A stretch of 42,980 nucleotides of DNA, from positions 1-42,980 of the forward strand of contig JAJHRB010000003.1 in NCBI GenBank assembly GCA_020833025.1, in the 5' to 3' direction. Source of the DNA: Thermoproteaceae archaeon. Its GTDB lineage: Archaea > Thermoproteota > Thermoprotei > Thermoproteales > Thermoproteaceae. Below the pieces are notes generated by a model. The model worked only from the letters and a program-made list of their open reading frames with translations, ran no database searches and was not told the DNA's origin. This document shows positions 9,454 through 42,758 of the stretch, piece after piece. The stretch's first letter is position 1, and the number at the start of each line of letters is the position of its first letter. A program made the translations under genes and the position numbers.

Positions 9454-9776
9454 GTACCGGAGAGATGTACAGGCATATATCAGCTGCATCCCACCTGGCT
9501 CCTGAGACCGCGCGCGCCGCGAGCGCGAGACATCTGTCGTGCTTTACCAGGGCGCATGACGCCGCCTCGCCTCACAGCACGAGGTCGACCCTCCTCATAG
9601 CGCAGCCCGCGGCCCTCATAACTGCCGGCAGGCTGGCCAGGGACGTCGCGGCGTCTCCGAGTCTTGTCAGCTCAGCGAGTCTTGTTGCCGGCCCGCCCCC
9701 TCCTCAACCTCTCTCAAGCCCTCGGCCGGAAGGTATGAGTCCGTTCACGCCGCCGAGGTCTGCAACATCCGCCCTT

Positions 9777-24800: not shown

Positions 24801-24948
24801 GCACTGCAGCCACGAACCGCTTAAGTGTGTCGAGGCCCCCGATACTAACAACCACGCCCCTCACGCTCCAGGCGGCCCGACGCCAGCTGACGCTGATGCC
24901 GGGAATCTCGGCGTTGTGCCTTTTTTATACCTGCCGCGGTGTGCAGAC

Positions 24949-25518: not shown

Positions 25519-26302
25519 CCTAATACCGGCAGTGACCTACATCCGCGTCTCGACGGAGGGGCAGGATCCCGAGAACCAGCGTGCCTTCCTCGAGAGGTGG
25601 GCGGCCGAGAGGGGCATGCAGATCGTGAGGCACTACATTGACGCTGGCGTCTCCGGCGCCACCGAGCCTTGGGAGAGGCCCGCGTTCAGGCAGCTGCTGG
25701 CAGAGGCGGGCAGGCTCGAGCCGAGGCCCAGGGCCCTCCTGGTGTACGAGATCTCAAGGCTCGTGCGCTCGTTTCAGGAGCTGTTCACGCTCCTGGATCT
25801 CGTGGAGGGGAGGCTCGGGCTCGTCGTGATCTCCGCCTCGGAGAGAGAGCAGGCCCTGCAGAGTCTCGACGGCGTGTACCGGCAGTTCCTGAGGGCCGTT
25901 CTCGCCTTCGTGGCGACAATGGAGAGAGAGTTCACGCGCCAGAGGACTAAGGCCGCGCTGGAGAGGGCGCGGGCGGCCGGCAAGCTGTGGAACGTCGCGG
26001 AGAGAGTCGGCGAGGGCGTCGCGAGGAGGGCGGCGGAGATGTACCTGTCGGGGGCCTCCCTCAGGGAGGTGGCCAGGGCGTTTGGAATGTCGCTGTACGA
26101 GGTGAGGCGGGTGCTCTCGGCGGCGGGGGCCTACAGGCCGGGCGAGTACACGTGCCCGCGCTGCTTCTCAAGGCTGAGAGTAGTGGAGCGGTCCGTCAGG
26201 CTCCAGCCCGGGAGGCACGCCGTCGTCGAGAGGCTCTACTGCAAGAACTGCGGCTACGACGAGACGAGGGAGCTCTCTCCTGCCGCCGGCAGCTCCGCGT
26301 AA
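25508..26302 (+). CDS. Small serine recombinase (resolvase type) with HTH and C-terminal Zn ribbon
   Basis: YIRVSTEGQ (catalytic Ser), DAGVSG...ERP, YEISRLVRS, EREFTRQRTKAAL, SLREVARAFG, CPRC...CKNC. Confidence 0.92.
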   Translation: MAASLIPAVTYIRVSTEGQDPENQRAFLERWAAERGMQIVRHYIDAGVSGATEPWERPAFRQLLAEAGRLEPRPRALLVYEISRLVRSFQELFTLLDLVEGRLGLVVISASEREQALQSLDGVYRQFLRAVLAFVATMEREFTRQRTKAALERARAAGKLWNVAERVGEGVARRAAEMYLSGASLREVARAFGMSLYEVRRVLSAAGAYRPGEYTCPRCFSRLRVVERSVRLQPGRHAVVERLYCKNCGYDETRELSPAAGSSA

Positions 26303-27048: not shown

Positions 27049-27159
27049 GTTCGCAATTCCCCGAGATTAAATTGGAGGTGCCGCCCAATCGCGCGGCGCG
27101 CCCCGCGGCTCGCCGCGCCTGTCGAGACGGGGCTGCAGCGAGCGCGCATTATGCCTCAA

Positions 27160-27185
27160 CAATGCATAAATACTGGGTTATATTT
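27160..27185 (+). promoter_or_regulatory. Conserved promoter motif, copy 1 (chelatase ATPase gene)
   Basis: CAATGCATAAATAC begins 32 nt before ATG 27192; overlaps the inverted repeat AAATA-N8-TATTT. Confidence 0.6.
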
Positions 27186-27191
27186 CTGGGC

Positions 27192-29129
27192 ATGTTAATA
27201 CAGCGGCGCGTCCGCCCGGTATACCCGTTCCCGGCAATTGTGGGCATGGAGGACGCGAAGCTCGCGCTGATGGTCGCCGCGGTTAACCCCTCTGTGGGCG
27301 GCGTGCTGCTCCGCGGCGACAAGGGAACCGGGAAGACGACGCTTGTCAGGTCATTCGCCGACGTGCTGCCGGAGGAGGAGGTCGTGGCGGGATGCCCGTT
27401 CAACTGCCACCCGGACGACCCGCGGCTCATGTGCGACGCGTGCTACGAGAGGTGGTCGCGGGGCGAGCCGCTCTCGCGGGCAAAGAGAAAAATGAGAGTG
27501 GTCGACCTCCCGCTCTCAATCACTGTCGACAGGCTGGTGGGCACCCTGGACATAAAGCGGGCTCTTAAGGAGGGAATCCGGGCGCTGCAGCCCGGGCTGC
27601 TTGCAGAGGCCAACCGCAACATACTGTACATCGACGAGGTGAACCTCCTCGACGACTACGTAATTGACGTGCTGCTCGACGCCGCCGCCTACGGCTGGAA
27701 CATAATAGAGAGGGAGGGCGTATCGATCAAGCACCCCGCCCGCTTCATTCTCGTCGGCTCGATGAACCCGGAGGAGGGAGAGCTCAGGCCGCAGCTCCTC
27801 GACAGATTCGGCCTCGTGGTCGACATCGAGGCGCCGAAGGACCCCGAGATAAGGGCGGAGATCGTCAGGCGGGTTGAGGAGTACGAGGCGGATCCCTTCG
27901 CGTTCTACGAGAAGTGGAGGCCGAAGGTAGAGGAGATCAGAGAGAGAATAGTGAGGGCCAGGGAGCTCGTCGGCAAGGTCGTAATCCCCGACGACATGCT
28001 GAGATTCCTCGCCGAGACCGTCGTCAAGATGAACGTGAGGACTAGCAGGGCCGAGATCATTACGGCCAGGGCGGCGAGAGCTATAGCGTCCCTCGACGGC
28101 AGGACCCGCGTGACGGCTGAGGACCTCAAGAAGGCAATGGAGCTGGCGCTGAAGCATAGGATAAAGAGCAGGCCGCTAGAGAGGCCGCCCCCTCCGCCCC
28201 CTCCTCCCCTTAACGTGCTGTCGATGATATGGAGGGGGCACAGGAGGGGGGAGGGCCTGAGCGGTAGGGAGCGCGGGGAGGGCGAGCAGAGGGAGGCGCC
28301 GGAGAGGAGGAGGGGGCAGGGGAGGGGCGACCCCCCGCTGGCCAGCCCGCACAAGCACGACTCGGGCGTGGGCCAGATTCTCGACGTCGAGCGCGCGCTC
28401 GGGCTCGAGAGGAGCAAGACGCCTGAGATGCCGCGGGGGCTGAGGTCGAGGCACTCGTGGAGGAGGGTTGTTGGGGGGCACGTCGGGATTCCGTACATGG
28501 CCGTTCCCGGCACCGGCGACGACGTGGACATAGCCGCGACGATCACGCACGCAGCGCTGAAGAGGCCCGGAGGGCCGCTGGAGATAGCCGACGACGACCT
28601 GATGGTGCGGGTCAGGAGGGCGAGGGCGCCGCGCGTGATGTTAATACTGCTGGACACGAGCGGCAGCATGGGATTCGCCAGGAGGATAGGCGTGGCCAAG
28701 GGCCTCGTGTACAGGCTGGCCGAGGAGGCGTACGTGAAGCGGAGCTACATCGCGCTCGCGGCGTTCCGGGGGGACGGCATTGACTACTTCCACCCGCCGA
28801 CGCGCCACTACGAGAGGATAGTGGAGGAGCTCTCGAGGCTCCCGCACGGCGGCTCGACCCCCCTCTCCGCCGCGCTAAAGTTCGCAATAGACTTCATATC
28901 GAGGCTCAAGCTCAAGCTGAGGGGCGACTACTGGGTCTACCTAATCACCGACGGCAAGGCCAACGTCCCGCTGCGCGATAACATAAGGGAGGAGGTGGCA
29001 GAGCTCGCGGCGGGGCTCTCGAAGCTTGCCAAGCTCGTCGTGTACGACGCAAGTCCCGGCTCGCTCTACCCGGGAGTGTCGTACATAGGCGTGCTCGCGC
29101 AGTACGCCCATTCTGTCGAGAGAGTCTAG
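27192..29129 (+). CDS. Class I chelatase AAA+ subunit (ChlI/ChlD-like) fused to a vWA domain
   Basis: YPFPAIVG, Walker [44 protein letters not shown], poly-Pro linker, MIDAS DTSGS, GGSTPL. Confidence 0.92.
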
Positions 29130-29139
29130 CCGGCGGCCG

Positions 29140-29560
29140 TCACCTGGCGCGCCTCTCAGACGGCCTCAGCCTGCCCGGCGGCTCTCCCCTGAATCTCCAC
29201 AGCCCCCTCCCGAACGACTCCACGGCTATCTCCAGCTCCTCGGCCAGCATGTCGCTTATTAGGGGCTCGTCGGCCAGCGACGACACGAGAAGGTCTGTCA
29301 AGACCTCCTTAGACTCTGCGTCGCCGGCAATCACCTTGACGAGTGCCGCGCGCGGGTAGAACCAGACCCTGAGGGGGCCTCCTGCCGTCTCTACAACTAG
29401 TTCTCTCGACTCGTCGGAGGGCGGCCACAGGCCGAGCGCCCTGGCAGTGCTAATCGGGAAGCAGCTGCGGGGTCGGCGCCTCGAGGCCGCTGTTGAGCAG
29501 CGCCACTTCCTCCACCGACCTCCCCCCGGCCCTTATCCTCACTCTCAGCCTGATGGCCAC
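29140..29560 (-). pseudogene. Frameshifted retropepsin-like (LNSG) small protein
   Basis: VAIRLRVRIRAGGRSVEEVALLNSGLEAPTPQLL continues after a +1 shift near 29456 as PISTARALGLWPP...TAGGPLRVWFYP...EPLISD; 421 nt = 3n+1. Confidence 0.65.
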
Positions 29561-29702
29561 TGAGAGCCGCCTTAATCCTGCCGATATAAGCGAAGGCCTT
29601 CGGCGCGATCCTGCCCATTCTCACTCTCCCCGCCACGCGCTGCCCGGCGCCGGGCTTAATAGCTGTGAGGCCGCCTTAGTACATGTATGCGTTACCGCGC
29701 GT

Positions 29703-29728
29703 CAATGCTTTAATACATTCACGTATTT
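29703..29728 (+). promoter_or_regulatory. Conserved promoter motif, copy 2 (ECF operon)
   Basis: CAATGCTTTAATACA begins 32 nt before ATG 29735; AATAC-N6-GTATT inverted repeat. Confidence 0.65.
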
Positions 29729-29734
29729 AGCAGT

Positions 29735-31213
29735 ATGTCATCAAGAGTCCTCGCCGCGCTGCTGACGCTGCTGCTCGCGCCGCTGGCGTGCGCGAGCGCA
29801 GTCGCGGTGCAGCTGAGAGTCCCCCACGGCGCTGCCGGAGATGTCGTGCACGTGCAGCCCAACGCGACGCTGGGCGGCATTGTCGCCGTGGAGTCGCGGC
29901 AGGACGGGGCCCTGCACTGCCGCGCGAGGCTCGTCTGTCATAACTGCACCGTGTCGCCGGAGGAGTTCACTGCCGTGCTGAGGCTGAGGCACGACGCGAG
30001 GGCAGTTCCCGTCGAGGTCAGGCTCGGCGGCAGTACCGCCGAGCTGCGCGCGGTGGTCGAGTGCAACGGCAGTGCCGCCGTCGCGAGGAAGCTCTTCATT
30101 CCGAGAGCCGAGTGGAGAGTCGGCGTCGAGGTCGTGGCTCCCTCAGACATATTCTGCTCCTTTGACCAGAGGTACGAGCCGTATACATTTATCGTGAGGC
30201 CCAGCTACGTGCCCGAGCTAATCCGGCTCATCACTCAGGAGTCGCGGGCGGGCGGGCATCCTGACCTGATAGGGCTCGTGTGCATAAGGGTCAACAGCAC
30301 GGCAGGGCTCAAGTACACGGCAGTATTGATGTTCGCGAGGCCTGACGGCTCCCCGGCGCCCATCTCGACCCAGTCGCTGCTCCTACACCCCGAGCTGCCG
30401 CAGCAGCACGGGACTGCCGTCGTGCCGGACATCGAGGGCTATCAAGTCGTGCCGCTGTTTTACCCCGGACACGCCGAGCAGGCGGCCGGCAGGTACAGAG
30501 TGACCCTCCTCCTGATACCGCAAGGCGGCTCGAGGCCCGTCTACAACACAACGTTCTACATCACCGTGATATCGACGCGGGGAGAGGCAGTGGCGCTGGC
30601 AGCGTTCTCCGCCTTTGTTGCAATTCCCGCGATGGTCTACCTCCTGTTCCGCTTCGCCAGGAGGGCCACGCTCGGCGACCTGGCCTTCGCGGCGCTCATG
30701 GCCCCGTTGCTCTTCGTGACCGTATACATACCTGGCAGTGTGGCGCGCGGCATCGGAGCGTTTCTCGGCCCGTTCGACTGGCTCGTGTACGGCATTCTCT
30801 TCGACACCGTCGAGTTCGCCCTGCTCGCAATTGCCGTCACGCTCAGGCCGAAGCCCGGCGTGTTGACGGCAATATTCTTCTTCCGCTGGCTGCTAAGCGT
30901 GCTTTACTTCGGCAGGGCCAGCGTGATATCCGCGCTCTGGCTGGCCACGTCGGCGCTCTTTTACGAGGGCGCGCTGTACCTATCCGGCGCCACCCGGGGG
31001 AGGCCGACCTTCGCGCGGGTCGCCGTCCCTCTGGTGCTCGGAGGGGCCTTTGACAGATATGTCGACATGGTCATGTACATGGCCCTGTACAGGCTGTACT
31101 ACGCCGGCTGGTACCTCCTGAGCTACGTGATCGGGACATCTGTCTACTCGGCGCTCGGGGCCCTGCTCGGGAGGCAGTACGCGAGGGTCGTGAGGGGGGC
31201 GCTCCATGAGTGA
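29735..31213 (+). CDS. ECF transporter S component (MptD-like) fused to an N-terminal extracellular domain
   Basis: Signal peptide, about 270 aa soluble region, then multi-TM region with TLGDLAFAAL and RPKPGVLT; directly upstream of ECF A and T genes. Confidence 0.75.
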   Translation: MSSRVLAALLTLLLAPLACASAVAVQLRVPHGAAGDVVHVQPNATLGGIVAVESRQDGALHCRARLVCHNCTVSPEEFTAVLRLRHDARAVPVEVRLGGSTAELRAVVECNGSAAVARKLFIPRAEWRVGVEVVAPSDIFCSFDQRYEPYTFIVRPSYVPELIRLITQESRAGGHPDLIGLVCIRVNSTAGLKYTAVLMFARPDGSPAPISTQSLLLHPELPQQHGTAVVPDIEGYQVVPLFYPGHAEQAAGRYRVTLLLIPQGGSRPVYNTTFYITVISTRGEAVALAAFSAFVAIPAMVYLLFRFARRATLGDLAFAALMAPLLFVTVYIPGSVARGIGAFLGPFDWLVYGILFDTVEFALLAIAVTLRPKPGVLTAIFFFRWLLSVLYFGRASVISALWLATSALFYEGALYLSGATRGRPTFARVAVPLVLGGAFDRYVDMVMYMALYRLYYAGWYLLSYVIGTSVYSALGALLGRQYARVVRGALHE

Positions 31214-32747
31214 GGTGGCCCTCAGGAAGGTCAGGGTGGTCTACCCGGGAGGCGTTGTGGGGCTTGAGGTTGACCGGCTCGAGATCGGGGGCCCTGGCCT
31301 CTTCCTAATTGCCGGGAGGTCGGGCTCGGGGAAGTCCACGCTCGGCAAGGTGATCGCCGGGGTGATACCGAGGGTGGAAAAGGCAGAGGTGGCGGGAGAG
31401 GTCAGGGCGCCGCCCCGGGCGGCCTACCTGCACCAGTCGCCCTACGACCAGGTGTTCTCGACGTATGTTATCGACGAGTTCTTGCTTGCTAAGGAGCTCT
31501 CTGGCTCGCGCCTCGACGTGCTCGAGGCGGCAAAGCTCGTAGGCATTGAGGAGTTGCTGGGCGCGAGGACGTCGGAGCTCTCCGGCGGGCAGCTGCAGAA
31601 GGTCCTCCTCGGCGTCACGCACCTCCTTGACTTCCCGCTCTACGTCCTCGACGAGCCGCTCGCCCACCTGGACCCCAGGAGCGCGAGAGAGCTTCTCGGC
31701 GCCGTGGTCAAGCTGAAGAGGGACAAGACGGTGCTGCTCATAGAGCACAGGCTCAAGGAGGTCTTGCAGATCTCCAGACACATAGACATGATAATTTTGC
31801 TCGACGGCGGCAGGATTGTCGACATAATGAGGCCCGAGGACGTGTCTGCAAAAGCTTGGCTTCTCTCGCGGCTCGGGCTGAGGCTCCCGCTGAGCCTGAA
31901 GTGCTCGCTGAGGCTAGGAGTCCCCGCGGCTGACCCCCTCGACCCCGCGCCTGTAGAGCGGGCCTTGGAGCTCTACAGGCCGCGCGGCAGCGCTGGCGAG
32001 GCGGGCGAGGCCGTGGTGGAGGTGAGGGGGCTGCACTTCTCTTACGGGAGGAGGGTTGTGTTCGCGGAAGCCGACTACGCGGCCAAGTCAAGGGCGGTGT
32101 ACGTGCTGTTCGGCAGGAACGGCAGCGGGAAGTCGACATTCTTGCACATACTCGCCGGGGTGCTCAAGCCAAGGAGAGGTCTCGTGCGCGTCGCGGGGAG
32201 GGCGGCGTACGTGCCCCAGAACCCCGACCTCACGCTAATGCACGAGACCGTGGAGAAGGAGCTCCTCAGCAGGACGAGGGCGTGGGCCAGGTCGAGGGCC
32301 GAGGCCAGAGAGCTCGCCCTCAAGGTGGCCGACGCGCTGGGCGTGAGACAGCTGATGGGCAGGAACCCCCACGCGCTCTCCAGGGGCCAGAGGTTCAGGG
32401 TGGCGCTGGCCGCTGCGCTGTCCTCGCGGCCGAGAGTCCTCTTGCTCGACGAGGTGACCTCGGGGCAGGACGAGGAGAGCATCGAGGCTCTGGGCAGGGC
32501 GCTCCGAGAGTTCGTGAGAGAGGGAAACGTCGCAATTATCGCAACTCACGACGTCTACTTCGCGCTCGACTTAGCGGACCGCGCGTCCGTTATCGCGGGA
32601 GGCCGCATAACGGAGCCGAGGCCTGTCGGCGACGTGCTGACCGACGAGGGGCTCCTCGAGGCCGGCAACCTGGTCGCGCCGCCGCACTTAGAGATCTGTA
32701 AGAGGCGGGGCATGCCGCCGGTCAGGGAGAGGGAGCTATGCGGCTGA
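31206..32747 (+). CDS. ECF transporter dual ATPase (A-A' fusion)
   Basis: Two Walker A motifs (GRSGSGKS, GRNGSGKS), signatures LSGGQ and LSRGQ, Walker B VLDEP and LLDEV. Confidence 0.92.
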   Translation: MSEVALRKVRVVYPGGVVGLEVDRLEIGGPGLFLIAGRSGSGKSTLGKVIAGVIPRVEKAEVAGEVRAPPRAAYLHQSPYDQVFSTYVIDEFLLAKELSGSRLDVLEAAKLVGIEELLGARTSELSGGQLQKVLLGVTHLLDFPLYVLDEPLAHLDPRSARELLGAVVKLKRDKTVLLIEHRLKEVLQISRHIDMIILLDGGRIVDIMRPEDVSAKAWLLSRLGLRLPLSLKCSLRLGVPAADPLDPAPVERALELYRPRGSAGEAGEAVVEVRGLHFSYGRRVVFAEADYAAKSRAVYVLFGRNGSGKSTFLHILAGVLKPRRGLVRVAGRAAYVPQNPDLTLMHETVEKELLSRTRAWARSRAEARELALKVADALGVRQLMGRNPHALSRGQRFRVALAAALSSRPRVLLLDEVTSGQDEESIEALGRALREFVREGNVAIIATHDVYFALDLADRASVIAGGRITEPRPVGDVLTDEGLLEAGNLVAPPHLEICKRRGMPPVRERELCG

Positions 32748-33553
32748 GCTTCACGGCAAAGCTCGCGCTGCTGGCAGCATTCAACGTGCTCGCAATAGCG
32801 CTCGACTACCTTCCCAACTTAATCGCGCTGGCGGCAGCGGCGGCCGCGATATGGGCCGCGGCGAGGCCCTCAGGCGACAGGCTGAAGCTCACGGCGCTCG
32901 TGGTGGTCCCGTCGGTGTGGTCCGTGGTCGTCTTACAGGGGCTATTCTACACGGGATGGCCCAGGACGGTCATCCTCACGATAATTCCGCCTGAGGCGCC
33001 CGTCCTCGGCTGGCTGACGGGCGGCGTCTACCTAACCTACCAGGGAATGCTGTACGGCCTGAAGCAGAGCCTCAGGATAGTCTCGGTAGCGCTCGTCGGC
33101 CTTGCAGTGGTGTGGACGTCGACGGAGAGAGAAATGATGGCAGAGCTCAGGCGCCTGCTGAGGGGCGCGACCCTGTCGGTCGGCGCCACTGTCGCGGCCA
33201 GGTTCTTCGACGTGTTCGCGCAGGACGCAAGGGCTGCGATGATAGCGTACAGGACGGCCGGCTACAGAATACTCGGCGCGAGCACGCTCAGACTGATCGT
33301 GCCCCTGGCAGTGCAGGTTCTGAGGAGGAGCTACGTGGTCACGCTCGCGCTGATAACGCGCGGGTTCAGCCCCGGGGTCAGGATCTCGTCAGGCGCGAGG
33401 CTAGGGGCCCTCGACATCGCGGCTATCGCCGCCTCGCTGGCAGTCGCCGGGACTGTCGGGCTGCTGAAGCTCCTCGCGCTGCTGTACATCATCGACGTGC
33501 TGTACATACCACAGCTGCGCGAGCTTTACTGGTACACAATCAATTATGTTTGA
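32738..33553 (+). CDS. ECF transporter T component
   Basis: Multi-TM protein with the EcfT-type X-R-X coupling region (ARF...AYRTAG; LITRGF). Confidence 0.85.
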   Translation: MRLSFTAKLALLAAFNVLAIALDYLPNLIALAAAAAAIWAAARPSGDRLKLTALVVVPSVWSVVVLQGLFYTGWPRTVILTIIPPEAPVLGWLTGGVYLTYQGMLYGLKQSLRIVSVALVGLAVVWTSTEREMMAELRRLLRGATLSVGATVAARFFDVFAQDARAAMIAYRTAGYRILGASTLRLIVPLAVQVLRRSYVVTLALITRGFSPGVRISSGARLGALDIAAIAASLAVAGTVGLLKLLALLYIIDVLYIPQLRELYWYTINYV

Positions 33554-33583
33554 TTCCGACCACGTTTCCCATACAGAGTGGAA

Positions 33584-33605
33584 CAATGCTTTAATACAAC
33601 AACGT
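33584..33605 (+). promoter_or_regulatory. Conserved promoter motif, copy 3 (beta-propeller gene)
   Basis: CAATGCTTTAATACAACAACGT matches 29703-29724 at 19 of 22 positions; 32 nt before in-frame GTG 33616. Confidence 0.65.
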
Positions 33606-33615
33606 GCGCATAGGC

Positions 33616-35325
33616 GTGAGGAGGGCGGGCATAGTAGCAGGCGTGATAGCCGCCGTTATAATCGCGGCGATCGCGGCGCTGCTGGCGCTGCCGAAGGCCC
33701 CGGCGCCCAAGCCCAACGCCACCGTCTCGCTCCCAGCGGCGCCGGCCGCGCCGGGAATCTCGCTCGCGTGGCAGTCGCCGCCGCTGATTGAGAGAGGCTG
33801 GCTGGTGGAACATGGGATGTATGAGAGGGCGTGGACCTGGTGGACTTTCAGCAAGGGCATTGTCCAAGTCTCGCCCGACGGCAGGTATGTCGCCGTCGGC
33901 ACGCAGAGGGGGGAAGTGGTTGTGCTTGACAGAGACGGGAGGGAGGTCGCCAGGTTTACATACGGCGCCGGGCGCGTGCCGTACTACGTTCTCGAGTTCT
34001 CGCCCGACGGCAGGTACCTCGCGGTCGGCATTGCGTCCAGGGAGGGAGAGCTGATAGTCTACGACACGTCGACATGGCGCGAGGCCGCGCACTTTAACTT
34101 CTCCTCCTACCTTAAAGGCCCCTCGAACGCCACTGAGTCCGCAATACTGAAGCAGCCGTGGTACGGCATCCGGCCGACATTCTTGCTGTTCCGCGGCGAC
34201 ATTCTCTACGTCACGGTGGGCGAGCCTCACATAGACCCCGAGACCCAGTCGCCTGTCTACTTCAAGGTCGCGATGGACCTCTTCAAGCTGTACCCCGAGC
34301 TGAGGAGGAGGTTTCCGAACTTGACGTCATACGTCGCGGTGAGGTACGCCGGGACTCAGTGGTCTAGAGTACTCGCAATAGACACGAAGACATGGCGCGT
34401 GAGGTGGGTCTGGCCCAGGGAGGAGCCGGCCGAGACTATGATACCCAACCTCGCCTCGGACGCGGGGAGGAGGTACCTCGCCCTCTCGACGTGGTGGTAC
34501 GTGTCGCGCAGCGACCCATACAAGTGGCACAGCGGAATGCTGTTCGTGCTAAACGCGACTAGCGGCGAGCTGCTGTACGTATTTGACGTGCCTCCCTACG
34601 TGCCGTACTTCAACTATACCTCAATCTGGACGGCGCCGGCCTTCACTCCCGACGGGAAGTACCTCGCCTTTGCGACTGGCGATGGCAGGGTTTACGTGCT
34701 TGACAACCTGCGCTCTATTGCCGAGAGGGGGGCCGTCGTGCTCTGGGCCGCGTCTATCTCCGACGTCCTGCCGGCGCAGGTACTGCTCATACCGCAAAAG
34801 GGTGGAGAGACAAAGGTCATACAGTCGTACATATACACGTTTGGCGGCCTCGCGGGCATTGTGAACGATAGAGTGATCGCCTACACGTCCGCTACCTATA
34901 CCACCTACTGGGCGCCTGGAGTCGAGCGCAAGCCAGTAACGCAACATCCAAACCAAACGAAACTCTTCGTGTTTGACCTGAACGGGACGCTCCTCTACGT
35001 CGACAAGTTCCTCGGCAAGCCCGCATACGGCAAGGTCGTGCCGTTTGCGATATCCGGCTGCATGCTGGCCGTCGGCGTGGGGAATGATTGGGTGACAAGC
35101 GACGTCTCAATGATGGGGGTGTATGTCTGGGACGTCTGTAGACTGGCTCAAGTGGGTAGATTTCTGACTGTTAAATACGGGGTGCCTCTCGACGTGGCGA
35201 TGTCGGGCAATCGCGTGTATGTATTGACGGGGCTTATCAACGCAGCTCCCAGCGAGACGGCGCCGGCGAACATAATTGGCGAGTACCGGCTGCTCGCACT
35301 TGAGCTGGGCCGGCCGGCGGGGTAG
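33616..35325 (+). CDS. Membrane-anchored extracellular WD40/PQQ-like beta-propeller
   Basis: N-terminal TM, Pro/Ala linker, repeated blades (VSPDGRYVAVG, FSPDGRYLAVG, FTPDGKYLAFATGDGRVYV). Start moved from 33604 by promoter spacing. Confidence 0.85.
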   Translation: MRRAGIVAGVIAAVIIAAIAALLALPKAPAPKPNATVSLPAAPAAPGISLAWQSPPLIERGWLVEHGMYERAWTWWTFSKGIVQVSPDGRYVAVGTQRGEVVVLDRDGREVARFTYGAGRVPYYVLEFSPDGRYLAVGIASREGELIVYDTSTWREAAHFNFSSYLKGPSNATESAILKQPWYGIRPTFLLFRGDILYVTVGEPHIDPETQSPVYFKVAMDLFKLYPELRRRFPNLTSYVAVRYAGTQWSRVLAIDTKTWRVRWVWPREEPAETMIPNLASDAGRRYLALSTWWYVSRSDPYKWHSGMLFVLNATSGELLYVFDVPPYVPYFNYTSIWTAPAFTPDGKYLAFATGDGRVYVLDNLRSIAERGAVVLWAASISDVLPAQVLLIPQKGGETKVIQSYIYTFGGLAGIVNDRVIAYTSATYTTYWAPGVERKPVTQHPNQTKLFVFDLNGTLLYVDKFLGKPAYGKVVPFAISGCMLAVGVGNDWVTSDVSMMGVYVWDVCRLAQVGRFLTVKYGVPLDVAMSGNRVYVLTGLINAAPSETAPANIIGEYRLLALELGRPAG

Positions 35326-35398
35326 CTCCGTTTTTTCATGCAATACTTAAATTCCGCTTTTCGCGTAATACTTAAATCTTGTAGAATTATTACACCCC

Positions 35399-36409
35399 AT
35401 GGGCTCCGAGGCGTTGCTCAAGCCTCCCGAGCCTCCTCCGGACGAGATTTACAGGATTGTGCTGCACGCGCAGGCCTTTTACGTGCTCGACGCTGCGCTA
35501 GAGCTTGACCTCTTCGAGAGGCTAAAGACTCCCAAGACTGCGGGGGAGCTGGCCGGGGAGCTGGGCACGGACCCCGCCCTGACGGAGACGGTGTGCGACG
35601 CGCTAGCCGCGCTGGGCCTCCTCAAGAAACGCGGCGGCGCCTACGAAAACTCAGCGCTTGCAAGTGCCTACCTCACGGAGGGCTCGCCCTACTGCATGAA
35701 GAACCTCCTGCGCCTGATGAGGTCGTCCCTGAGGGACAGGTGGCCCCGCCTTCTCGACGCGCTGCGCGGGAAGCCCGTCGGGGCGGGCGGGCGCGACCCG
35801 CGGCTCTTCACGCTGGCCGTGGCCGAGAGCGCGCTGGCAGGCGGCCTGCACGGGGTGGTGGAGGTGCTGAGGGAAATTGAGGACCTCAAGAGGGCCAGGA
35901 GGCTCCTCGACCTCGGGGGCGGCCACGGGCTTTACTCCGTCGCCTTGGTCAAGCTGTTCCCCCAGCTGCACGCCTACGTCCTCGACCTCCCCGAGGTTTT
36001 AGAGGTGGCCAGGGAAATTGTGAGCAGATACGGCGGGGACGTGATCGACAGGGTGCACTTCGTGCCCGCCGACTTCACGAGAGACGACATAGGCAGCGGC
36101 TACGACGTCGTTCTCGCCTCGCACTCCCTTTACGGCTACCGGGAGCGGCTCGCGGAAATCTTGAGGAAAGTGCACGCGGCGCTGAACGGCGGGGGCCTCT
36201 TCATATCGAATCACGCGCACAAGTCGCAGGGGCTGAGGGCCTCCCTCTTCGAGCTCCAGATAGCCATGGCCCGCAGGGGATTCTCGCTCTTCAGCGTGGG
36301 GGAGCTAATGTCGCGGCTCAGAGAGGCCGGGTTTGTCGTCGAGGACGTGGCGGTCGTGGGCGGCGCGTGGCCCTCGACGATAGTTGTTGCCAGGAAGCCG
36401 TTACAATAG
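35399..36409 (+). CDS. Class I SAM-dependent methyltransferase (O-methyltransferase family 2, with dimerisation domain)
   Basis: AALELDLFERL, LLDLGGGHGLY, DLPEV, ADF, YDVVLASH. Confidence 0.9.
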   Translation: MGSEALLKPPEPPPDEIYRIVLHAQAFYVLDAALELDLFERLKTPKTAGELAGELGTDPALTETVCDALAALGLLKKRGGAYENSALASAYLTEGSPYCMKNLLRLMRSSLRDRWPRLLDALRGKPVGAGGRDPRLFTLAVAESALAGGLHGVVEVLREIEDLKRARRLLDLGGGHGLYSVALVKLFPQLHAYVLDLPEVLEVAREIVSRYGGDVIDRVHFVPADFTRDDIGSGYDVVLASHSLYGYRERLAEILRKVHAALNGGGLFISNHAHKSQGLRASLFELQIAMARRGFSLFSVGELMSRLREAGFVVEDVAVVGGAWPSTIVVARKPLQ

Positions 36410-36431
36410 GCAAACCCCGCCCCCGGGCAGG

Positions 36432-37343
36432 TCAGAGCAGTAGCGGGAGGGCCGCCAGTAGCGTGAACGCCACGTGTGCGCCTTGTTGTATCAATAATAT
36501 TTTCACTCCGTCGCGCACCCCGAAAATGCCCACAAAGTAAGGTAGGAGAACTCTTAGGCTCAGCGGCACGGCGGAGAGGACATTGCCGAGGACGAGGGCG
36601 GCGACGACCTCTCTGTCTCCCATCGCGCCTGCGGCGCAGAGACCCGCGGCGGTCGCATACGCCGATATCGGGTTTACCATGTGCGCGGCGATTACGGCGA
36701 GGGCCTCTGGCCTCAGCGGCACGATGCCTCCCAGTGCCCCGGCGAGAGCCGAGAACGCCCCCAGCCTCGCGAGGAGCTCGACCGCTGCCATCGTGGCCGC
36801 GATGTTCGCAATCACTCTCAGCGCTCTTCTCCACGACTTTCTCAGCGCCTCCGTTAGAGCCCGCGAGAGCGGCGGCGACTCCCCGCCGGCGGCCACCGCC
36901 ATGAGGGCGCGCGAGGGCGGGGGCAGCAGCAGCCTCCCCAGCAAGGCGAAGAACGCTGTCTTGGCGAGCCCCGCGCCCACGAGAATGAGAAAGTAGGTCA
37001 GGCCGGCGGCGCCGAGGAGCCCGAGGAGTGGCGGCAGCAGGTAGGGCCAGTGCATTAGAATAGCCGGGAAGGAGTTCAGCATGATGGCTATGTACATCTC
37101 CCCCGTGCCTATCTCCCCCCTGTCTCTCAAGTCCCTTAGCATCGTGTAGGCAGCCGTCGGCGAGATGAAGGCAAGCGCGAAGGAGAGGGCGGCATGCGGC
37201 TTTAGGTGCGCGAAGCTCACCAGCGGCCTCACGGCGAGCGCTAGCCTGTAGGATGCCCTCCTGTAAGCGGTCAGCAGCTCCGCGAGCACGAACCCGAAGA
37301 GGACTGCAGGCGCCGAGACAGCAAGCGCTTTCGCGAGCTCCAT
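36432..37343 (-). CDS. Gate (nucleoside recognition)-domain membrane protein
   Basis: Multi-TM with a two-fold internal repeat (FISPTAAYTML / MVNPISAYATA). Start moved to ATG 37343. Confidence 0.65.
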   Translation of the reverse strand: MELAKALAVSAPAVLFGFVLAELLTAYRRASYRLALAVRPLVSFAHLKPHAALSFALAFISPTAAYTMLRDLRDRGEIGTGEMYIAIMLNSFPAILMHWPYLLPPLLGLLGAAGLTYFLILVGAGLAKTAFFALLGRLLLPPPSRALMAVAAGGESPPLSRALTEALRKSWRRALRVIANIAATMAAVELLARLGAFSALAGALGGIVPLRPEALAVIAAHMVNPISAYATAAGLCAAGAMGDREVVAALVLGNVLSAVPLSLRVLLPYFVGIFGVRDGVKILLIQQGAHVAFTLLAALPLLL

Positions 37344-37457
37344 ACCCGGCATTTCTGGTGCTGCTGTGTTGCGCGTGAGCTGCACCGTATGAAGTCTGCG
37401 CGCGAATTAAAGTGTATGAGGGAGGAAATGTTAAATAATCGGGAACTTTCACACGCA

Positions 37458-38957
37458 ATGCTCGCAATCAAGACGGAGAAGGCGGGAAGGCTTGTCGAGA
37501 CGCTTAAGCTCGCCCTCGAGATCGTCGACAGGATCAGGGCGAGCGGGCCAGCTGAGACCGCCGGGCTCCTCGCGGGGCTCGAGGGAGGCTACGTGGAGCC
37601 GGGGCCCTCGGGCGCGCTGACGCGGGGCAAGGTTGAGGTGCTGCCCACTGGCAGGAACTTCTTTGCGGTCGACCCGACGCAGATCCCGACTCCCGCCGCG
37701 TGGAAAGTCGGCGTGGAGTCGGCGGAGAGGCTCGTAAGGTACTACAGGGAGAGATACGGGAGGTACCCCGAGAGCGTCGGCGAGGTCCTGTGGTCCATTG
37801 ACGCCTACAAGGCAGATGGGGAGCAGCTGTCGCAAATCCTGTGGCTGATGGGCGTCCAGCCAGTCTGGGCCGAGGACGGCAGCGTTAGGGGCGTTGAGGT
37901 AGTGCCGCTGGAGAAGCTGGGCAGACCCAGAATTGACGCTGTGGCCAGAATAAGCGGGATTGTCAGGGACACCCTGCCGAATTACGCCTACCTCATAGAC
38001 GAGGCGGTGTCAAAGGTAATAGCGCTTGACGAGCCTCTGGATATGAACTTCGTCAAGAAGCACTACTTGGAGACGCTTGAGAAGCTAAAGGCCGCCGGCG
38101 TTGACAAGCCAGAGGAGAGGGCCAGGGCCAGGGTGTACGGAGAGCCGCCGGGGGCCTACGGCGCGGGCGTCAACTACGCCGTGGAGGCCTCGGCGTGGAG
38201 GACAGACGAGGACCTCATGAAGGTGTGGCTCCAGTGGGGCAGCTACGCCTACACGCGCGCAATGTATGGAGAGATGAACGTCGAGGCGTTCGTGGCACAG
38301 CTCTCCAAGGTCGATGTAATAAACAGGAACCACATAAGCGACGAGCACGACATATTTGGCTGTTGTTGTTATTTCGCCTTCCATGGCGGCTTTTACAACG
38401 CCGTCAAGGCGCTGACGGGCAGGAGCGACATAGAAATAGTGACCGTCGACACCAGGGACCTCTCGAACATTGAAGTGCGGGGAATGAGGGAGGAGATAGA
38501 GAGAGTGGTCAGGGCCAAGCTCCTGAACCCCGTCTGGATCTCTGAAATGATGAAGCACGGCTATAGAGGGGCCAACGAGATCCAGAGGAAGATACTGCAC
38601 CTTTACGGCTGGTCCGCCACGACGAAGCTCGTCGACAAGTGGGTGTACGACGAGCTCGTGAGAACGTACGTGCTTGACGAGAGGATGCGCAAGTGGTTCA
38701 TGGAGAACAACATCTACGCGCTGGAGGAGATAGTCAGGCGGTTCATAGAGGCGGCGCAGAGGGGGCTGTGGAGGGCAGACGCGGAGACTCTTGAGAGGCT
38801 CAACGAGATCTACAGCGAGATCGAGGCGGTGCTCGAGGCCGACGTGACAGGCGAGGTGCAGGGAGGCTCAATAGACGTGTACACCCACGCCGACGTCCCC
38901 CAGTGGGGCGAGGCCGTTAAGAGGGTGGAGGAGGCCCTCGCCAGGGTGAGGAAATGA
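37458..38957 (+). CDS. CobN/BchH-like chelatase, C-terminal half
   Basis: GGYVEPGPSGALTRG..VLPTGRNF, PRIDAVARISGIVRD, YGAGV, RAKLLNPVWI..MMKHGYRGA. Start ATG 37458. Confidence 0.9.
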   Translation: MLAIKTEKAGRLVETLKLALEIVDRIRASGPAETAGLLAGLEGGYVEPGPSGALTRGKVEVLPTGRNFFAVDPTQIPTPAAWKVGVESAERLVRYYRERYGRYPESVGEVLWSIDAYKADGEQLSQILWLMGVQPVWAEDGSVRGVEVVPLEKLGRPRIDAVARISGIVRDTLPNYAYLIDEAVSKVIALDEPLDMNFVKKHYLETLEKLKAAGVDKPEERARARVYGEPPGAYGAGVNYAVEASAWRTDEDLMKVWLQWGSYAYTRAMYGEMNVEAFVAQLSKVDVINRNHISDEHDIFGCCCYFAFHGGFYNAVKALTGRSDIEIVTVDTRDLSNIEVRGMREEIERVVRAKLLNPVWISEMMKHGYRGANEIQRKILHLYGWSATTKLVDKWVYDELVRTYVLDERMRKWFMENNIYALEEIVRRFIEAAQRGLWRADAETLERLNEIYSEIEAVLEADVTGEVQGGSIDVYTHADVPQWGEAVKRVEEALARVRK

Positions 38958-41359
38958 AGAGGCTGGCATTCATAATCGGGTACGGCGGGGCTGCCCTCCC
39001 GCTTGTGGAGAAAGCCGCGGGCGAGGAGTGTAAGACGCTGGGTCTTGAGTGCGTTGCGGCAACCGACGTGACCGCGCCGCGGTACAGGCAGTTCATCGCG
39101 TCGGCAGACGCCATTTTCATCTACTCGCACCAGCTCTCCGACGACGTCGTCGAGGCAATAAAGGCGGCGAGGGAGCGCGGCGCGGTGGTGATATCTGCCA
39201 CGGACTACTTCTTCGACCTCGTAAACGCGCCGCCGCAGCTCGTGCTCGAGGCCCGGCGCTACTTTATAACAGGCGGCGAGGACAACTTCAGGGCGCTGGT
39301 CAGGCTCCTGGCAAGAGCCCTCGGCATGAACGTGGACGTCCCGCCGCTGAGGGAGGTCCCGTGGATGGGCGTCTACCACCCGAGGCTCGGCACGTTCACG
39401 TCGCTGGAGGAGTACCTCAGGGTTTACGACATACAGAGCAGGGAGGGAGTCGTCGGCGTGCTGTTCTACAGGACGTACTGGCTCTACGGCAACCTGGCCC
39501 ACGTGAACGCCCTGATAGAGGCGCTCGAGGCCGAGAACCTGGCCGTCGTGCCTGTGTTCACGTACGGCTTCCGCGACGAGAGTGTCGGCGCGCCCTCGGC
39601 GGAGGACGCCATCAGAGAGTTCTTCTTCTACAGGGGCGAGAGAGTAGTCAACGCCGTGATAAACCTCCTCTTCTTCTTCCTGCTGGACAGGGGCAAGTGG
39701 CACAGGAGGGCTGACAGGTTCAAGGTCGCCGAGACCGGCATCGCGCTGCTAAAGAGGCTGAACGTCCCGGTGATAACGCCAATAACGTGCTTCTATAGGT
39801 CCGTCGACGAGTGGGCTAAGGACCCGCAGGGCGTTGACTATCTGACGCAAGTTTACAGCGTGATAATGCCCGAGGTGGACGGCCTGATAGAGCCCGTCTT
39901 TTACGCGGGCGCCAGGCCCGCGCCGGACGGCACCAAGAGGTACGAGCCGTTCCTGGAGCACGCCAGGTACCTGGCCAGGAGGGTGAAGAGGTGGATCAAG
40001 ATGGCGAGGAAGCCCCCGTCGCAGAGAAAGATTGCAATCGTCCTGATAAACCCGCCGTGCAAGAACCTGCAGGCGAACATAGGCGTCGGCCTCGGCCTGG
40101 ACGTGCCGGAGTCCATCGCCAGGCTGCTCCACAGGCTCGCCGAGCTCGGCTACGACGTCGGCCCGAGGGATGCCCTGCTGAAGACGGGGCAGGAGCTCAT
40201 CAAGATGTTCCTAGCGAGAAAGGCCTACAGCGACTTCCGCTTCGCGAGCGTTGAGGACATAGTGATGAGCGGCGGCGCCGCCGCCTTCGTGGATTACGAC
40301 ACGTACATCAAGTGGTTCGAGGAGCTCCCCGAGGAGGCCCGCAGGAGGCTCGAGAGAGACTGGGGCCACCCGCGCGACGTCCTTGAGGGCCGCGCGCCGA
40401 AAGAGTTCGCCGGCATGGTGTACGAGGGGAAGTTCGTCGTGCCCGGCCTTCTATTCGGCAACGTCTTCATCACGCCCCAGCCTAAGTTCGGCTGCGCGGG
40501 CCCCGGCTGCGACGGCAGGATCTGCAGGATACTGCACGATCCCAACATTACGCCGCCCCACCAGTGGCTCGCCGTCTACAGGTGGATAACGAGAGTGTTC
40601 GGCGCGGACGTGGTAATACACTTCGGCACCCACGGGTACCTTGAGTTCAGGCCGGGCAAGGGGGTCGGGCTCGCGCCGTGGGACTGGCCGGAGATCTCGA
40701 TTGACGACGTCCCGCACCTGTACGTCTACGTCGTCTCGAACCCGATGGAGGGGGTGATGGCGAAGAGGAGGTCCTACGCGGTGCTAGTGGACCACATGTA
40801 CCCGCCGATGGCGCTGGCAGAGGGCCTCGAGGAGCTCGAGAGGCTTGTCAACGACTACGCCAAGTACAAGGCCCTGGGCGAGTTTGAGAAGGCAAAGATT
40901 GTGTATGAGGAAATCGTAAAGAAAGCGAAGGATAATCACGTCAGGATACCCGAAGGCGGAGACCCCGAGAAGGTCGTGGAGGAGGTCCACCGTTACATCG
41001 ACATGGTGAAGGGCACGCAGATAAACCTCGGGCTTCACGTCTTCGGCAGCCCGCCGGAGGACCCCGAGAGGCTGGCGCAGTACGCCGCGACGATACTGGC
41101 CTACGACACGGCGAGGGCCCCCTCGATTCGGAGGGTTCTTGCGGAGTACCTGGGCCTCGACTACGATGAGATGAGGAGGAGGCCTCTCGAGGTGAATAAG
41201 CTCGGCATGACAAACGCCGAGACCCTGAACCTGCTGTACAAGGCTGCCGTCGAGATAATCAAACAGCTCGTCTCAGCCCCGCGCTCGGAGGAGGCGATAC
41301 TTAGCGTCGCGGAGTCTGTTCTGCGGAAGCTCTTTGGCGCCAGAACCGCGCCCCTATGA
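38954..41359 (+). CDS. CobN/BchH-like chelatase, N-terminal half
   Basis: VIMPEVDGLIEP, KIAIVLINPP, GNVFITPQP, PPHQWLAVY, HFGTHGYLEFRPGK, NPMEGVMAKRRS, GLHVFG. Confidence 0.92.
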   Translation: MKRLAFIIGYGGAALPLVEKAAGEECKTLGLECVAATDVTAPRYRQFIASADAIFIYSHQLSDDVVEAIKAARERGAVVISATDYFFDLVNAPPQLVLEARRYFITGGEDNFRALVRLLARALGMNVDVPPLREVPWMGVYHPRLGTFTSLEEYLRVYDIQSREGVVGVLFYRTYWLYGNLAHVNALIEALEAENLAVVPVFTYGFRDESVGAPSAEDAIREFFFYRGERVVNAVINLLFFFLLDRGKWHRRADRFKVAETGIALLKRLNVPVITPITCFYRSVDEWAKDPQGVDYLTQVYSVIMPEVDGLIEPVFYAGARPAPDGTKRYEPFLEHARYLARRVKRWIKMARKPPSQRKIAIVLINPPCKNLQANIGVGLGLDVPESIARLLHRLAELGYDVGPRDALLKTGQELIKMFLARKAYSDFRFASVEDIVMSGGAAAFVDYDTYIKWFEELPEEARRRLERDWGHPRDVLEGRAPKEFAGMVYEGKFVVPGLLFGNVFITPQPKFGCAGPGCDGRICRILHDPNITPPHQWLAVYRWITRVFGADVVIHFGTHGYLEFRPGKGVGLAPWDWPEISIDDVPHLYVYVVSNPMEGVMAKRRSYAVLVDHMYPPMALAEGLEELERLVNDYAKYKALGEFEKAKIVYEEIVKKAKDNHVRIPEGGDPEKVVEEVHRYIDMVKGTQINLGLHVFGSPPEDPERLAQYAATILAYDTARAPSIRRVLAEYLGLDYDEMRRRPLEVNKLGMTNAETLNLLYKAAVEIIKQLVSAPRSEEAILSVAESVLRKLFGARTAPL

Positions 41360-42758
41360 CCTCCCGGGCGGCGAGCACGGGCAGCAGCATTGCGATAAAC
41401 GCTGCGGTGCTCGCGTTCATGTTAACTACATATGCGTCTTTTGACGGGAGTGAGTAGTAAATCGGGCCCATCGGCGTCTCGAAGTAGAGGTATGTCTTGT
41501 ACTGCGTGAGCACAGTCCCCGCAATTGCCGACCCCACGGCGAAGCCGATAATGCGGAAGACTGTGTTCAGCGACGTCGCGGCTCCCAGGAGCTCGCGAGG
41601 CGCGGAGAACGTGAGGAGGTTGATCAGCGAGACGAAGAGCAGCATGATGCCGACGTACGCGACGGTTATGCACGACAGCACCGTCCAGACCCCGCTGTAG
41701 AGGTACCTTGCGGTCAGCTGGAGGCCGGCAATTGCCAGCACCACGCCGATTACCGACATGACCTTCGTCCCCACGAAGACTATCGCCCTGCCGGCCACCA
41801 TGGAGGCCGCGGCAGACACTACCGACGGGAACAACATGAGCATTCCGGTCTGTAAGATCGTCAGCCCGTAGCCGTAGGGGACGGGCATCTCGAACAGGTA
41901 TATCACGCTCTGCTGGGCGCCTAGCATCATGCCGAGACCCGCCACGGCTATCGCCGCGTTTGCCACGCTGACGTTTCTCGCGAGCAGCTCTCTGGGTATG
42001 AGCGGCTCTTTCGTCGTTGCCTCGTGGAGCGCGAGGACGAGCGCCGCCACGGCCGAGAGCGCGAAGAGAGACGCTGTCTTTGGCGACGCCCAGCCCCAGT
42101 CGGGCCCCTTGGTCAGCGCTATCAAGAGCGGCACCACGGCAGCCGACAGGAGGCCAACGCCGATGTAGTCGACTCTGCGGTATGCCCTGTACCTGCTCTC
42201 CCTGACGCAGAGCCATATCAGCACGGTGCACAGCGCCGCCAGCGGCGCCGCTGTGTAAAACACAGACCTCCACCCGTAGTTCTGCGACAGGTAAGCGCCT
42301 GCTTGCAGCGCTACCATCATGCCGACGCCGAACATGGCGCTCACGACCCCCTGGGCGAGGGGGGCCATCTCCGGCGGGAACTCCTCCCGTATTATTGAAA
42401 ACGCGAGAGGGAACATTGCGACCCCGAGCCCCTGCAGGGCCCTCAACGCGACGAACGTCCCGAAGTTGGGGGCAAATCCCGCGGCCGTCGTGGCGAGCGC
42501 GTATACAACCAGCGCTACGAGCAGCATCCTCTTCTTGCCGTAGATGTCGCCGAGAGCGCCGAAGACAGACGCGCCGACGGCGCCCGCCACCATGAAGGCG
42601 GTCATGATCCACGCCGCGTCCGCCGCGCTGACGTTAAAGTCGGCCTGTATTCTCGGCAGGCTCGGCATTACGGATCCCGATACGTACATGACGAGGAGAG
42701 CCGCAGAGCCTAGGATTGGCGTTATCCTCCAGGCGTACCTAACGTCGTAGGCCTCCAC
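41301..42758 (-). CDS. MFS transporter (DHA2-like, 14 TM)
   Basis: GALGDIYGKKR motif A, RALQGLG, IIREEFP, GWRSVF, DYIG. Confidence 0.9.
   Translation of the reverse strand: MEAYDVRYAWRITPILGSAALLVMYVSGSVMPSLPRIQADFNVSAADAAWIMTAFMVAGAVGASVFGALGDIYGKKRMLLVALVVYALATTAAGFAPNFGTFVALRALQGLGVAMFPLAFSIIREEFPPEMAPLAQGVVSAMFGVGMMVALQAGAYLSQNYGWRSVFYTAAPLAALCTVLIWLCVRESRYRAYRRVDYIGVGLLSAAVVPLLIALTKGPDWGWASPKTASLFALSAVAALVLALHEATTKEPLIPRELLARNVSVANAAIAVAGLGMMLGAQQSVIYLFEMPVPYGYGLTILQTGMLMLFPSVVSAAASMVAGRAIVFVGTKVMSVIGVVLAIAGLQLTARYLYSGVWTVLSCITVAYVGIMLLFVSLINLLTFSAPRELLGAATSLNTVFRIIGFAVGSAIAGTVLTQYKTYLYFETPMGPIYYSLPSKDAYVVNMNASTAAFIAMLLPVLAAREVIGARFWRQRASAEQTPRR

Follow-up and report, generated by a model that had tools for sequence, protein, structure and literature searches.

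A recurrent gene module of archaea and bacteria combines an unusual ECF-type importer with a CobN-like chelatase, split in Thermoproteales

Many archaea that follow the cobalt-early pathway, or that make no corrin ring at all, carry homologues of CobN whose role has been called unclear (PMC12583661, PMC8305020). CobN-like 'BtuS' proteins for metalloporphyrin salvage have been attributed to Rodionov 2003 (PMC6460266), and a salvage role of haloarchaeal CobN/ChlID has been raised as speculation (PMC8305020). In Dehalobacter restrictus an operon for CobN, Mg-chelatase, CbiZ and FepBCD-type proteins, with a B12 riboswitch upstream, goes up 346-fold on corrinoid starvation (PMC4285132). In the present study we describe a cluster of genes for a CobN-like chelatase and an energy-coupling factor (ECF) importer at 27.1-41.4 kb of a 42,980-nucleotide stretch of DNA (the window), which is contig C18 of an archaeal metagenome-assembled genome (MAG; G000, family Thermoproteaceae, 1.56 Mb, 94% complete) from a genus that also holds Pyrobaculum neutrophilum (relative G039). 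An initial annotation, made from the letters of the window, had listed the genes of this cluster and knew of no characterised system of its composition in Thermoproteales. Every gene on the list was confirmed by open reading frames (ORFs) and domain matches. The cluster is indeed uncharacterised, but the salvage idea for CobN-like proteins is about 20 years old and hence not unprecedented.

The cluster is a recurrent module of archaea and bacteria, and not a chance neighbourhood. A synteny check over 62 genomes of the order and loci outside it found that the series beta-propeller, ECF S component, fused A-A' ATPase and T component (Prop-S-AA'-T) recurs with CobN and a ChlI-ChlD fusion (ChlID) in Thermoproteales and beyond. 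The S protein is present in 9 of the 62 genomes, with the four-gene series as the constant core, and a CobN split into an N-half (CobN_N) and a C-half (CobN_C) in about 15, including all nine that have the S protein. This recurrence, along with a near-unique promoter motif shared by three units of the cluster, substantiates the initial proposal that importer and chelatase belong together. The arrangement differs between relatives. In G043, of the same genus, T-AA'-S-Prop is divergent from CobN_C-CobN_N-ChlID-Prop2-full-length CobN, and G003 shows full-length CobN-ChlID-Gate ... Prop-S-AA'-T ... CobN_N with the C-half 83 kb off. The AA'-T pair is relocated beside CobN_C in G015, and cbiG and a TP_methylase gene lie immediately upstream of the propeller gene in G013.

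The importer itself can be exchanged. In four genomes (P. neutrophilum, G001, Archaeoglobus veneficus and a Desulfurococcaceae genome) a double Peripla_BP_2 protein, FecCD and an ATPase are encoded beside the orthologous split CobN, the binding proteins being tandem-duplicated and membrane-anchored. P. neutrophilum has double Peripla_BP_2 protein-FecCD-ATPase-Gate-SAM methyltransferase-Gate (SAM, S-adenosylmethionine) on the importer side and CobN_N-CobN_C-ChlID-CobN-second binding protein on the divergent side, and G001 has CobN_N-CobN_C-ChlID beside binding protein-FecCD-ATPase; from these two arrangements we conclude that a BtuFCD-type chelate importer occupies the place of the ECF system. 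Of the relatives that can be cultivated, P. neutrophilum and P. islandicum have this BtuFCD-type form. The series binding protein-FecCD-ATPase-CobN_N-CobN_C forms one operon in A. veneficus and is found together with ChlID in the Desulfurococcaceae genome. Unsplit relatives of this CobN, from ANME-1 and Methanomicrobiales, sit with ChlID, and FecCD is present at all of these loci but L054, an ANME-1 locus that carries a homologue of the Gate protein.

Outside the order, CobN is encoded in the same operon as the S component in all four members of the closer branch of the S family (L038, L040, L041 and L042). Two bacterial loci include genes for TonB-dependent receptors (TBDR), as TBDR-CobN-Prop-S-AA'-T in L038 and ExbB-ExbD-TonB-Prop-S-AA'-T-CobN-TBDR-ChlID in L040. 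A Firmicutes MAG (L041) has ChlI-nitrilase-CbiZ-Prop-S-T-AA'-CobN-ChlD-ChlI, and L042, with a split cobN, has CobN_N-CobN_C-ChlID-Gate-Prop-S-AA'-T in one direction.

The common promoter motif already pointed out in the initial annotation is borne out for three units, ChlID, the S-AA'-T transporter and the propeller. The 15-mer CAATGCTTTAATACA is found in identical copies ahead of the S and propeller genes and with 3 mismatches at the ChlID start, giving 3 matches in the window against 0.10 expected. Its 12-nt core, ATGC[AT]T[AT]AATAC, has 4 sites in the whole genome and 3 of them at this locus, all on the + strand: ATGCATAAATAC at 27162..27173, 19 nt before the probable ChlID start (ATG 27192), and ATGCTTTAATAC at both 29705..29716 and 33586..33597, 19 nt before the S-component start (ATG 29735) and the propeller start (GTG 33616), respectively. 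A TATA box of a leaderless transcript has this spacing, and the three units are predicted to be co-regulated. The fourth core site (C67:2063) has the same spacing and stands ahead of a gene for a membrane-anchored tandem BtuF-like (Peripla_BP_2 type) binding protein. The promoters of cobN, the Gate gene and the methyltransferase gene differ in look from the shared motif, which is not conserved in the loci of other species. As a side observation, contig C67 ends within the tandem BtuF-like gene (C67:2063-4079, L035).

The S component (29735..31213, +) is a protein of 492 aa with a signal peptide, about 285 extracellular residues and a helical membrane domain. Its ecto-domain consists of two immunoglobulin (Ig)-like sandwiches with 5 invariant Cys. 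When an AlphaFold (AF2) model built on 11 homologues (pLDDT 83.6) was compared with 48,161 PDB representatives, residues 310-491 matched YkoE (5edl) best, with Z 14.4 and a root-mean-square deviation of 2.9 Å over 173 residues, followed by NikM, RibU, FolT, ThiT and CbiM. As all helical matches listed for the model are ECF S components, the description of the locus as encoding a complete ECF importer is correct, with the addition that its S component is unusual. The S fold is encoded together with a T component of the CbiQ family (32738..33553, +; CbiQ match E 1.5e-9) and a fused A-A' ATPase (31206..32747, +) of 513 aa, whose two ABC_tran domains match ECF_ATPase_1 and ECF_ATPase_2, as in ECF transporters of the dedicated type. 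Foldseek with the whole S model returned Ig-domain proteins only, and the membrane domain was seen only by the exhaustive VIA search. A word-based search for relatives gave 5, and an exhaustive profile search gave 391 cluster representatives (at 50% identity), in which the same membrane domain stands behind variable ecto-domains. No Pfam match, and so no PF01891, was obtained for the window protein, nor was any for the 10 family members scanned. We therefore define here an S-component family with a built-in extracellular domain, for which there is no Pfam model.

The propeller (33604..35325, +; probable true start GTG 33616) is the constant partner of the S component among the relatives. The model of this protein, which has a pLDDT of 87, is a beta-propeller with a transmembrane anchor, predicted to lie outside the cell. 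The top 50 Foldseek matches were generic WD40 proteins, among which no specific likeness to BtuG was seen. The Gate-type membrane protein (36432..37385, -) gave a Pfam Gate match of 20.3 bits, under the cut-off of 29.6, and in Atlas a feature score of 0.97 to Gate clusters. It resembles FeoB permease-domain models with TM scores of 0.64-0.65 over about 290 residues and has no G domain. Within the module the Gate protein recurs in G003, G039 (twice), g7 genomes, L042 and ANME-1.

The two cobN genes lie at 37389..38957 (C-half, +; likely start 37458) and 38954..41359 (N-half, +), with an ATGA overlap and in swapped order, as the C-half gene precedes the N-half gene. Against PF02514 the C-half scored 588 bits (profile 676-1090) and the N-half 583 bits (profile 2-663), jointly the whole profile. 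The window halves keep every one of the 48 columns that do not vary among 24 members of the family, CobN, BchH and HmuS references included: 21 fall in the N-half, H560-G561 among them, and the other 27 in the C-half. As these columns are spread over both halves, both pieces would be needed for one active site. We found no hydrophobic segment in either half and no N- or C-terminal membrane anchor, and the halves are by prediction soluble and cytoplasmic.

An assembly error or a pseudogene was rejected as explanation of the split, since about 15 genomes of the order, and distant archaea besides, have the same split at 47-70% identity. C-halves of about 500 aa with 55-70% identity are common in archaea, and the two genes overlap in relatives too. 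The order N-then-C, seen in G039, G001, G013, A. veneficus and the Desulfurococcaceae genome, is the usual one; C-then-N is peculiar to G000 and G043, and in G003 the halves are unlinked. Judged by these comparisons the split is old and real.

It seems that the window protein falls outside the named equivalog families, in so far as the summed bit scores of two halves, a rough measure, can tell: the halves gave 437 + 325 bits with TIGR02257 (CobN equivalog, cut-off 822), 434 + 348 bits with the BchH model (cut-off 829) and 582 + 643 bits with the best NCBIfam model, NF004646 (cut-off 1468), none of which was reached. By sequence similarity to PDB entries, ChlH and CobN are close together and HmuS is lower, above all for the C-half; of the relatives with solved structures, HmuS comes last or last but one in bit score. 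The joined halves amount to 1300 aa, as compared with 1469 aa for Prevotella HmuS.

The motor partners of a class I holoenzyme are present in fused form. ChlID (27072..29129, +; probable start ATG 27192) joins a ChlI-type AAA+ motor to a vWA part of the ChlD/CobT type, with matches to AAA_lid_2, Mg_chelatase and VWA_2 and with 616 bits to TIGR02442 ('putative cobaltochelatase') over residues 51-661. No other ChlI/D-type gene was found in the genome, and in most relatives ChlID adjoins CobN. A further Mg_chelatase match in the genome was rejected as a second ChlID, being MCM.

To place the window CobN we used a quick maximum-likelihood tree of 24 proteins, which is small and unrooted. Its references come from plasmid records with annotation and comprise the HmuS of Prevotella, encoded in an hmuY-TBDR-hmuS operon, a TonB-linked T. 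lovleyi CobN, Ralstonia and Haloferax CobN, a BchH, and a Sphingobium CobN from a CobW-CobN-CobO...CobG cluster. The split archaeal CobNs group in a single clade (SH-aLRT 100), the bacterial ECF-linked CobNs are its sister group (SH-aLRT 100), and both together are sister to the reference CobNs (SH-aLRT 99). The window protein is thus sister to, and not nested within, the clade of Sphingobium, Ralstonia and Haloferax cobaltochelatases. Full-length Thermoproteales paralogues form a separate clade along with the cbi-cluster-linked CobN of genus g9, and HmuS is the most distant. The tree should be read with its few references in mind, as the BchH and HmuS branches are long and many rows have deviant amino-acid composition. 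Of the phylogenetic check proposed with the initial annotation, a nesting among cobaltochelatases did not come out and the kinship with HmuS did not either.

As for the source of the macrocycle, no match to TP_methylase, CbiD or CbiX was obtained on the contig of the window, in agreement with the absence of corrin ring genes noted earlier. The search of the genome for a cobalamin pathway revealed a cbi cluster on contig C9, with four TP_methylases, a CbiT-like methyltransferase, CbiD and a CbiX-CbiC fusion; CobS and CbiB are present as well. CbiD and the CbiX-CbiC fusion are markers of the anaerobic route and not of the cobalt-late (aerobic) context; CobG and CobF were not searched for. In four relatives (G043, G038, G003 and G001; 93-99% complete, with G038 closed) CbiD and CbiC were not found, and TP_methylases are fewer, at 4, 3, 4 and 1 respectively. 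All four carry split CobN and ChlID, all keep CobS and all but G001 keep CbiB; B12-binding-domain proteins occur in 4 of 4, and CbiZ was found in G043 and G003 as well as in G039, a congener of G038. Without CbiD and CbiC the chelatase of these four genomes cannot serve a home-made corrin ring. This favours salvage over de novo synthesis, and with the window genome's own cbi cluster lying elsewhere, the role outside de novo B12 synthesis first put forward for the locus is the favoured one. G043 further has a canonical CbiM alongside this ECF system; in the window genome CbiM was not found.

Several side observations concern the chelatase and corrin genes of these genomes. At C9:14597-15559 (L023) CbiX, a class II cobaltochelatase, and CbiC, precorrin-8X methylmutase, are fused in one 320-aa protein. 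A CobN C-terminus remnant (profile 990-1089) with an internal TAA stop adjoins the cbi cluster at C9:16423-16719 (L023) and looks like a decayed third or fourth cobN copy. On another contig (C10:11091-17338, L024) there are two tandem cobN paralogues of full-length type, the second cut by the contig end, followed by an uncharacterised 269-aa gene and one that is flavin-reductase-like; the C9 cbi cluster, too, is flanked by a flavin reductase gene (9677-10543). In G043, a few kb past the CobN cluster, a DUF364/DUF4213 protein ('putative heavy-metal chelation') and an FmdE-domain protein are encoded (L027:15822-17559). This pair precedes a binding protein, FecCD and, further on, CbiM, and HypF adjoins, forming a metal/chelate transport island.

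Taken together, we suggest a conserved uptake-plus-chelatase system for a corrinoid or related tetrapyrrole, and we give the complete route about an even chance of being right. The propeller and the Ig-like ecto-domain of the S component would capture a scarce compound of the metal-chelate type outside the cell, most likely a corrinoid or related tetrapyrrole, which the dedicated ECF module (S, fused A-A' and T) would import. In the cytoplasm the two-polypeptide CobN (N-half and C-half) would bind the macrocycle, and with the ChlI-ChlD fusion as putative ATP-driven motor the enzyme would set its metal, most likely by insertion and most likely with cobalt; the FeoB-like Gate permease is a candidate route for the metal ion. 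The exchange of ECF for FecCD importers, the bacterial TonB-dependent receptors and the extracellular capture proteins suggest that the cargo is probably a chelate. The corrinoid reading draws on CbiZ or cbi genes in two independent loci, on the genomes that appear to be salvagers, on the position of the clade as sister to cobaltochelatases and on the literature. Insertion is favoured because the chelatase has an ATPase motor, is predicted to be cytoplasmic and lies far from HmuS; exchange or removal of the metal is less probable. Further, we speculate that this branch of CobN, widespread, hardly studied and in archaea made as two polypeptides, works on imported macrocycles and not on those made by the cell. 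It would be served by a new family of ECF importers, in which the S component has a receptor domain of its own and a surface propeller as partner, the importer delivering metal-free, incomplete or wrongly metalated corrinoids, or another tetrapyrrole, that CobN/ChlID (re-)metalates with ATP. We regard this as a tentative idea, well short of probable.

A number of observations weigh against the corrinoid uptake-plus-chelatase account. Salvaged corrinoids normally already have cobalt, and the purpose of a chelatase is then unexplained; with a corrin ring of its own making and with CbiX, the window genome has no obvious need for salvage. What the comparisons show directly is the gene content, the folds, the recurrence of the module in both domains of life, the common promoter motif and the place of this CobN in the family tree; cargo, metal and reaction direction are inferred, the cargo from indirect evidence. 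A scan with Rfam at gathering level gave no cobalamin riboswitch in the window or in 12 related loci, of which 5 are bacterial, most being archaeal and L038 lacking its upstream region. Among the PDB matches of the BtuF-like binding proteins, nickel, molybdate, heme, siderophore and B12 binders are about equal, and nickel-related genes (NikR_C, an Ni_insertion fragment and HypF) are found near some relatives. In three S-family members further removed from the window protein, the propeller, the ECF genes or a TBDR-TonB pair are retained but no CobN lies nearby, which makes the CobN link a feature of a single branch within a larger family of importers.

Three rival accounts were weighed. Under plain metal supply the ECF module, propeller and Gate protein would import Co2+ (or Ni2+), free or metallophore-bound, and CobN/ChlID would be an ordinary cobaltochelatase feeding the cell's own B12 pathway. 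Several observations would suit such a function. A full cbi cluster is in the genome, CbiM was not found at 94% completeness, and the T component belongs to the CbiQ family. NikM and CbiM are among the fold matches of the S component, the reference cobaltochelatases are the sister group of this CobN clade, and relatives have nickel- or metal-related neighbours. We nevertheless hold it to be unlikely. The early chelatase CbiX, fused to CbiC, is already in the genome; the four relatives without CbiD and CbiC make no ring themselves that could be metalated; and in G043 a canonical CbiM exists besides this system. Nor does the S component give a CbiM match, and with a 285-aa ecto-domain at its N-terminus the N-terminal metal site of CbiM would be unusable. 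TonB-dependent receptors and FecCD-type importers, moreover, carry chelates, not free ions.

Metal removal, which the initial annotation had favoured by analogy with HmuS, fares worse. An imported metallo-tetrapyrrole (heme or a corrinoid) would here be stripped to harvest Fe, Co or Ni or to exchange the metal. CobN relatives can run in reverse, HmuS being a heme dechelatase (PMC12583661), the FeoB-like permease recalls the dependence of B. fragilis heme-iron use on FeoAB (PMC6460266), and salvagers have no obvious need for metal insertion. The window CobN is, however, far from HmuS in the tree, with HmuS bit scores lowest or next to lowest; it has neither an N- nor a C-terminal membrane anchor and is predicted to be cytoplasmic; it is coupled to ChlID, which is nearly always adjacent, whereas HmuS needs no ATP (PMC12583661); and no hmuY or hmuR genes are in the window. 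Dechelation is for these reasons (distance in the tree, cytoplasmic location and pairing with an ATPase) not supported and in our opinion quite improbable. That the genes are chance neighbours or a mobile island with no common function could be argued from a serine recombinase gene 1.3 kb upstream of the cluster, from the patchy distribution within the genus and from the O-methyltransferase, which is not conserved nearby; but the same gene set is found in different orders in both domains of life and a near-unique promoter motif is held in common, which leaves this explanation with hardly any credibility.

The class I SAM O-methyltransferase (35399..36409, +; PF00891 and a dimerisation domain) was earlier assigned a methylation step in the route, which our comparison does not uphold. 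The window gene has orthologues (31-37% identity) in five g7 genomes only, on other contigs than the cluster and never adjacent to it. All five have split CobN and four have the S-type importer; in the fifth, G010, no S match was found. The SAM methyltransferase within the importer operon of P. neutrophilum is unrelated to that of the window. We consider the window gene an accessory at most, not a conserved member of the module. Next to the orthologue of this gene in G015 a metallo-beta-lactamase-fold protein is encoded (L045:8395-9267), and such proteins are encoded beside split cobN as well, at L032:11977-12705 (G001) and L037:1517-2401 (Desulfurococcaceae).

At the edges of the cluster two further features may be mentioned. 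Between thiI and an NAD kinase gene, 1.3 kb upstream, the window holds a small ORF without family match followed by a serine recombinase (Resolvase and a weak HTH_58 match) at 24916-26302; the pair is possibly a mobile element of small size. Near the split cobN of G013 there is a similar resolvase (L034:2485-3246). At the other end, a permease of the DHA2/EmrB type of major facilitator superfamily efflux proteins (41301-42758, -) is convergent with the end of the cobN N-half gene, the two ORFs overlapping by about 60 nt; this permease was not seen in the clusters of relatives.

What emerges is one well-defined clade of CobN tied to dedicated importers, either ECF with propeller or BtuFCD-type, along with a single ATPase motor and a FeoB-like permease. 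This offers a testable role for archaeal CobN, most likely the scavenging of vitamin-B12-like compounds, and poses concrete questions about the ligand of the propeller and ecto-domain, the metal handled and the direction of the chelatase. If true, metalation of an imported macrocycle would be a salvage step without a described counterpart and would explain the orphan CobN genes of archaea. The link of the bacterial S family to TonB-dependent receptors is unusual for ECF transporters.

Compared with described systems, the locus is in gene content reminiscent of 'operon-2' of D. restrictus PER-K23 (Rupakula et al. 2015, PMC4285132), in which CobN and Mg-chelatase-type subunits are encoded with a chelate importer and salvage genes. 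The host of that operon cannot make the ring (PMC4285132). L041 in particular recalls it by CbiZ, ChlI/ChlD and CobN. Unlike our locus, operon-2 has importers of the FepBCD/BtuCDE type and a riboswitch, and no ECF S component or propeller is mentioned for it (PMC4285132). HmuS of the hmuYRSTUV systems of Bacteroidota (PDB 9d26) is likewise a CobN-superfamily protein encoded with tetrapyrrole uptake and has the family-invariant core residues in common, but it is anchored in the membrane, lies in the periplasm, works without ATP, has a Met-rich insertion and belongs to a distant clade. Its heme ligands are Met79/His254. The window CobN by comparison is in two pieces, paired with ChlID, predicted to be cytoplasmic and sister to CobN.

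With CobNST and ChlH-ChlI-ChlD the window chelatase has in common a large CobN/ChlH body, an AAA+ motor and a vWA subunit (TIGR02442, PF02514). It differs in that the body is encoded in two genes, C-half first, that it stays under the NCBIfam equivalog cut-offs and that it is tied to importers and not to the aerobic B12 or chlorophyll pathways. On the transport side, CbiMNQO and NikMNQO are likewise dedicated (group I type) ECF systems with a CbiQ-family T component and the S-component fold; the window S component, in contrast, is not of the CbiM family, has a large ecto-domain and a propeller partner, and works with fused ATPases. BtuG of Bacteroides is a surface propeller capturing B12. It provides a precedent for a surface propeller in an uptake system, although no specific similarity of the window propeller to it was seen among the top 50 Foldseek matches. 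The BtuFCD-type importers, finally, come close by position, as a FecCD/Peripla_BP_2 importer replaces the ECF system beside the same CobN in sister genomes.

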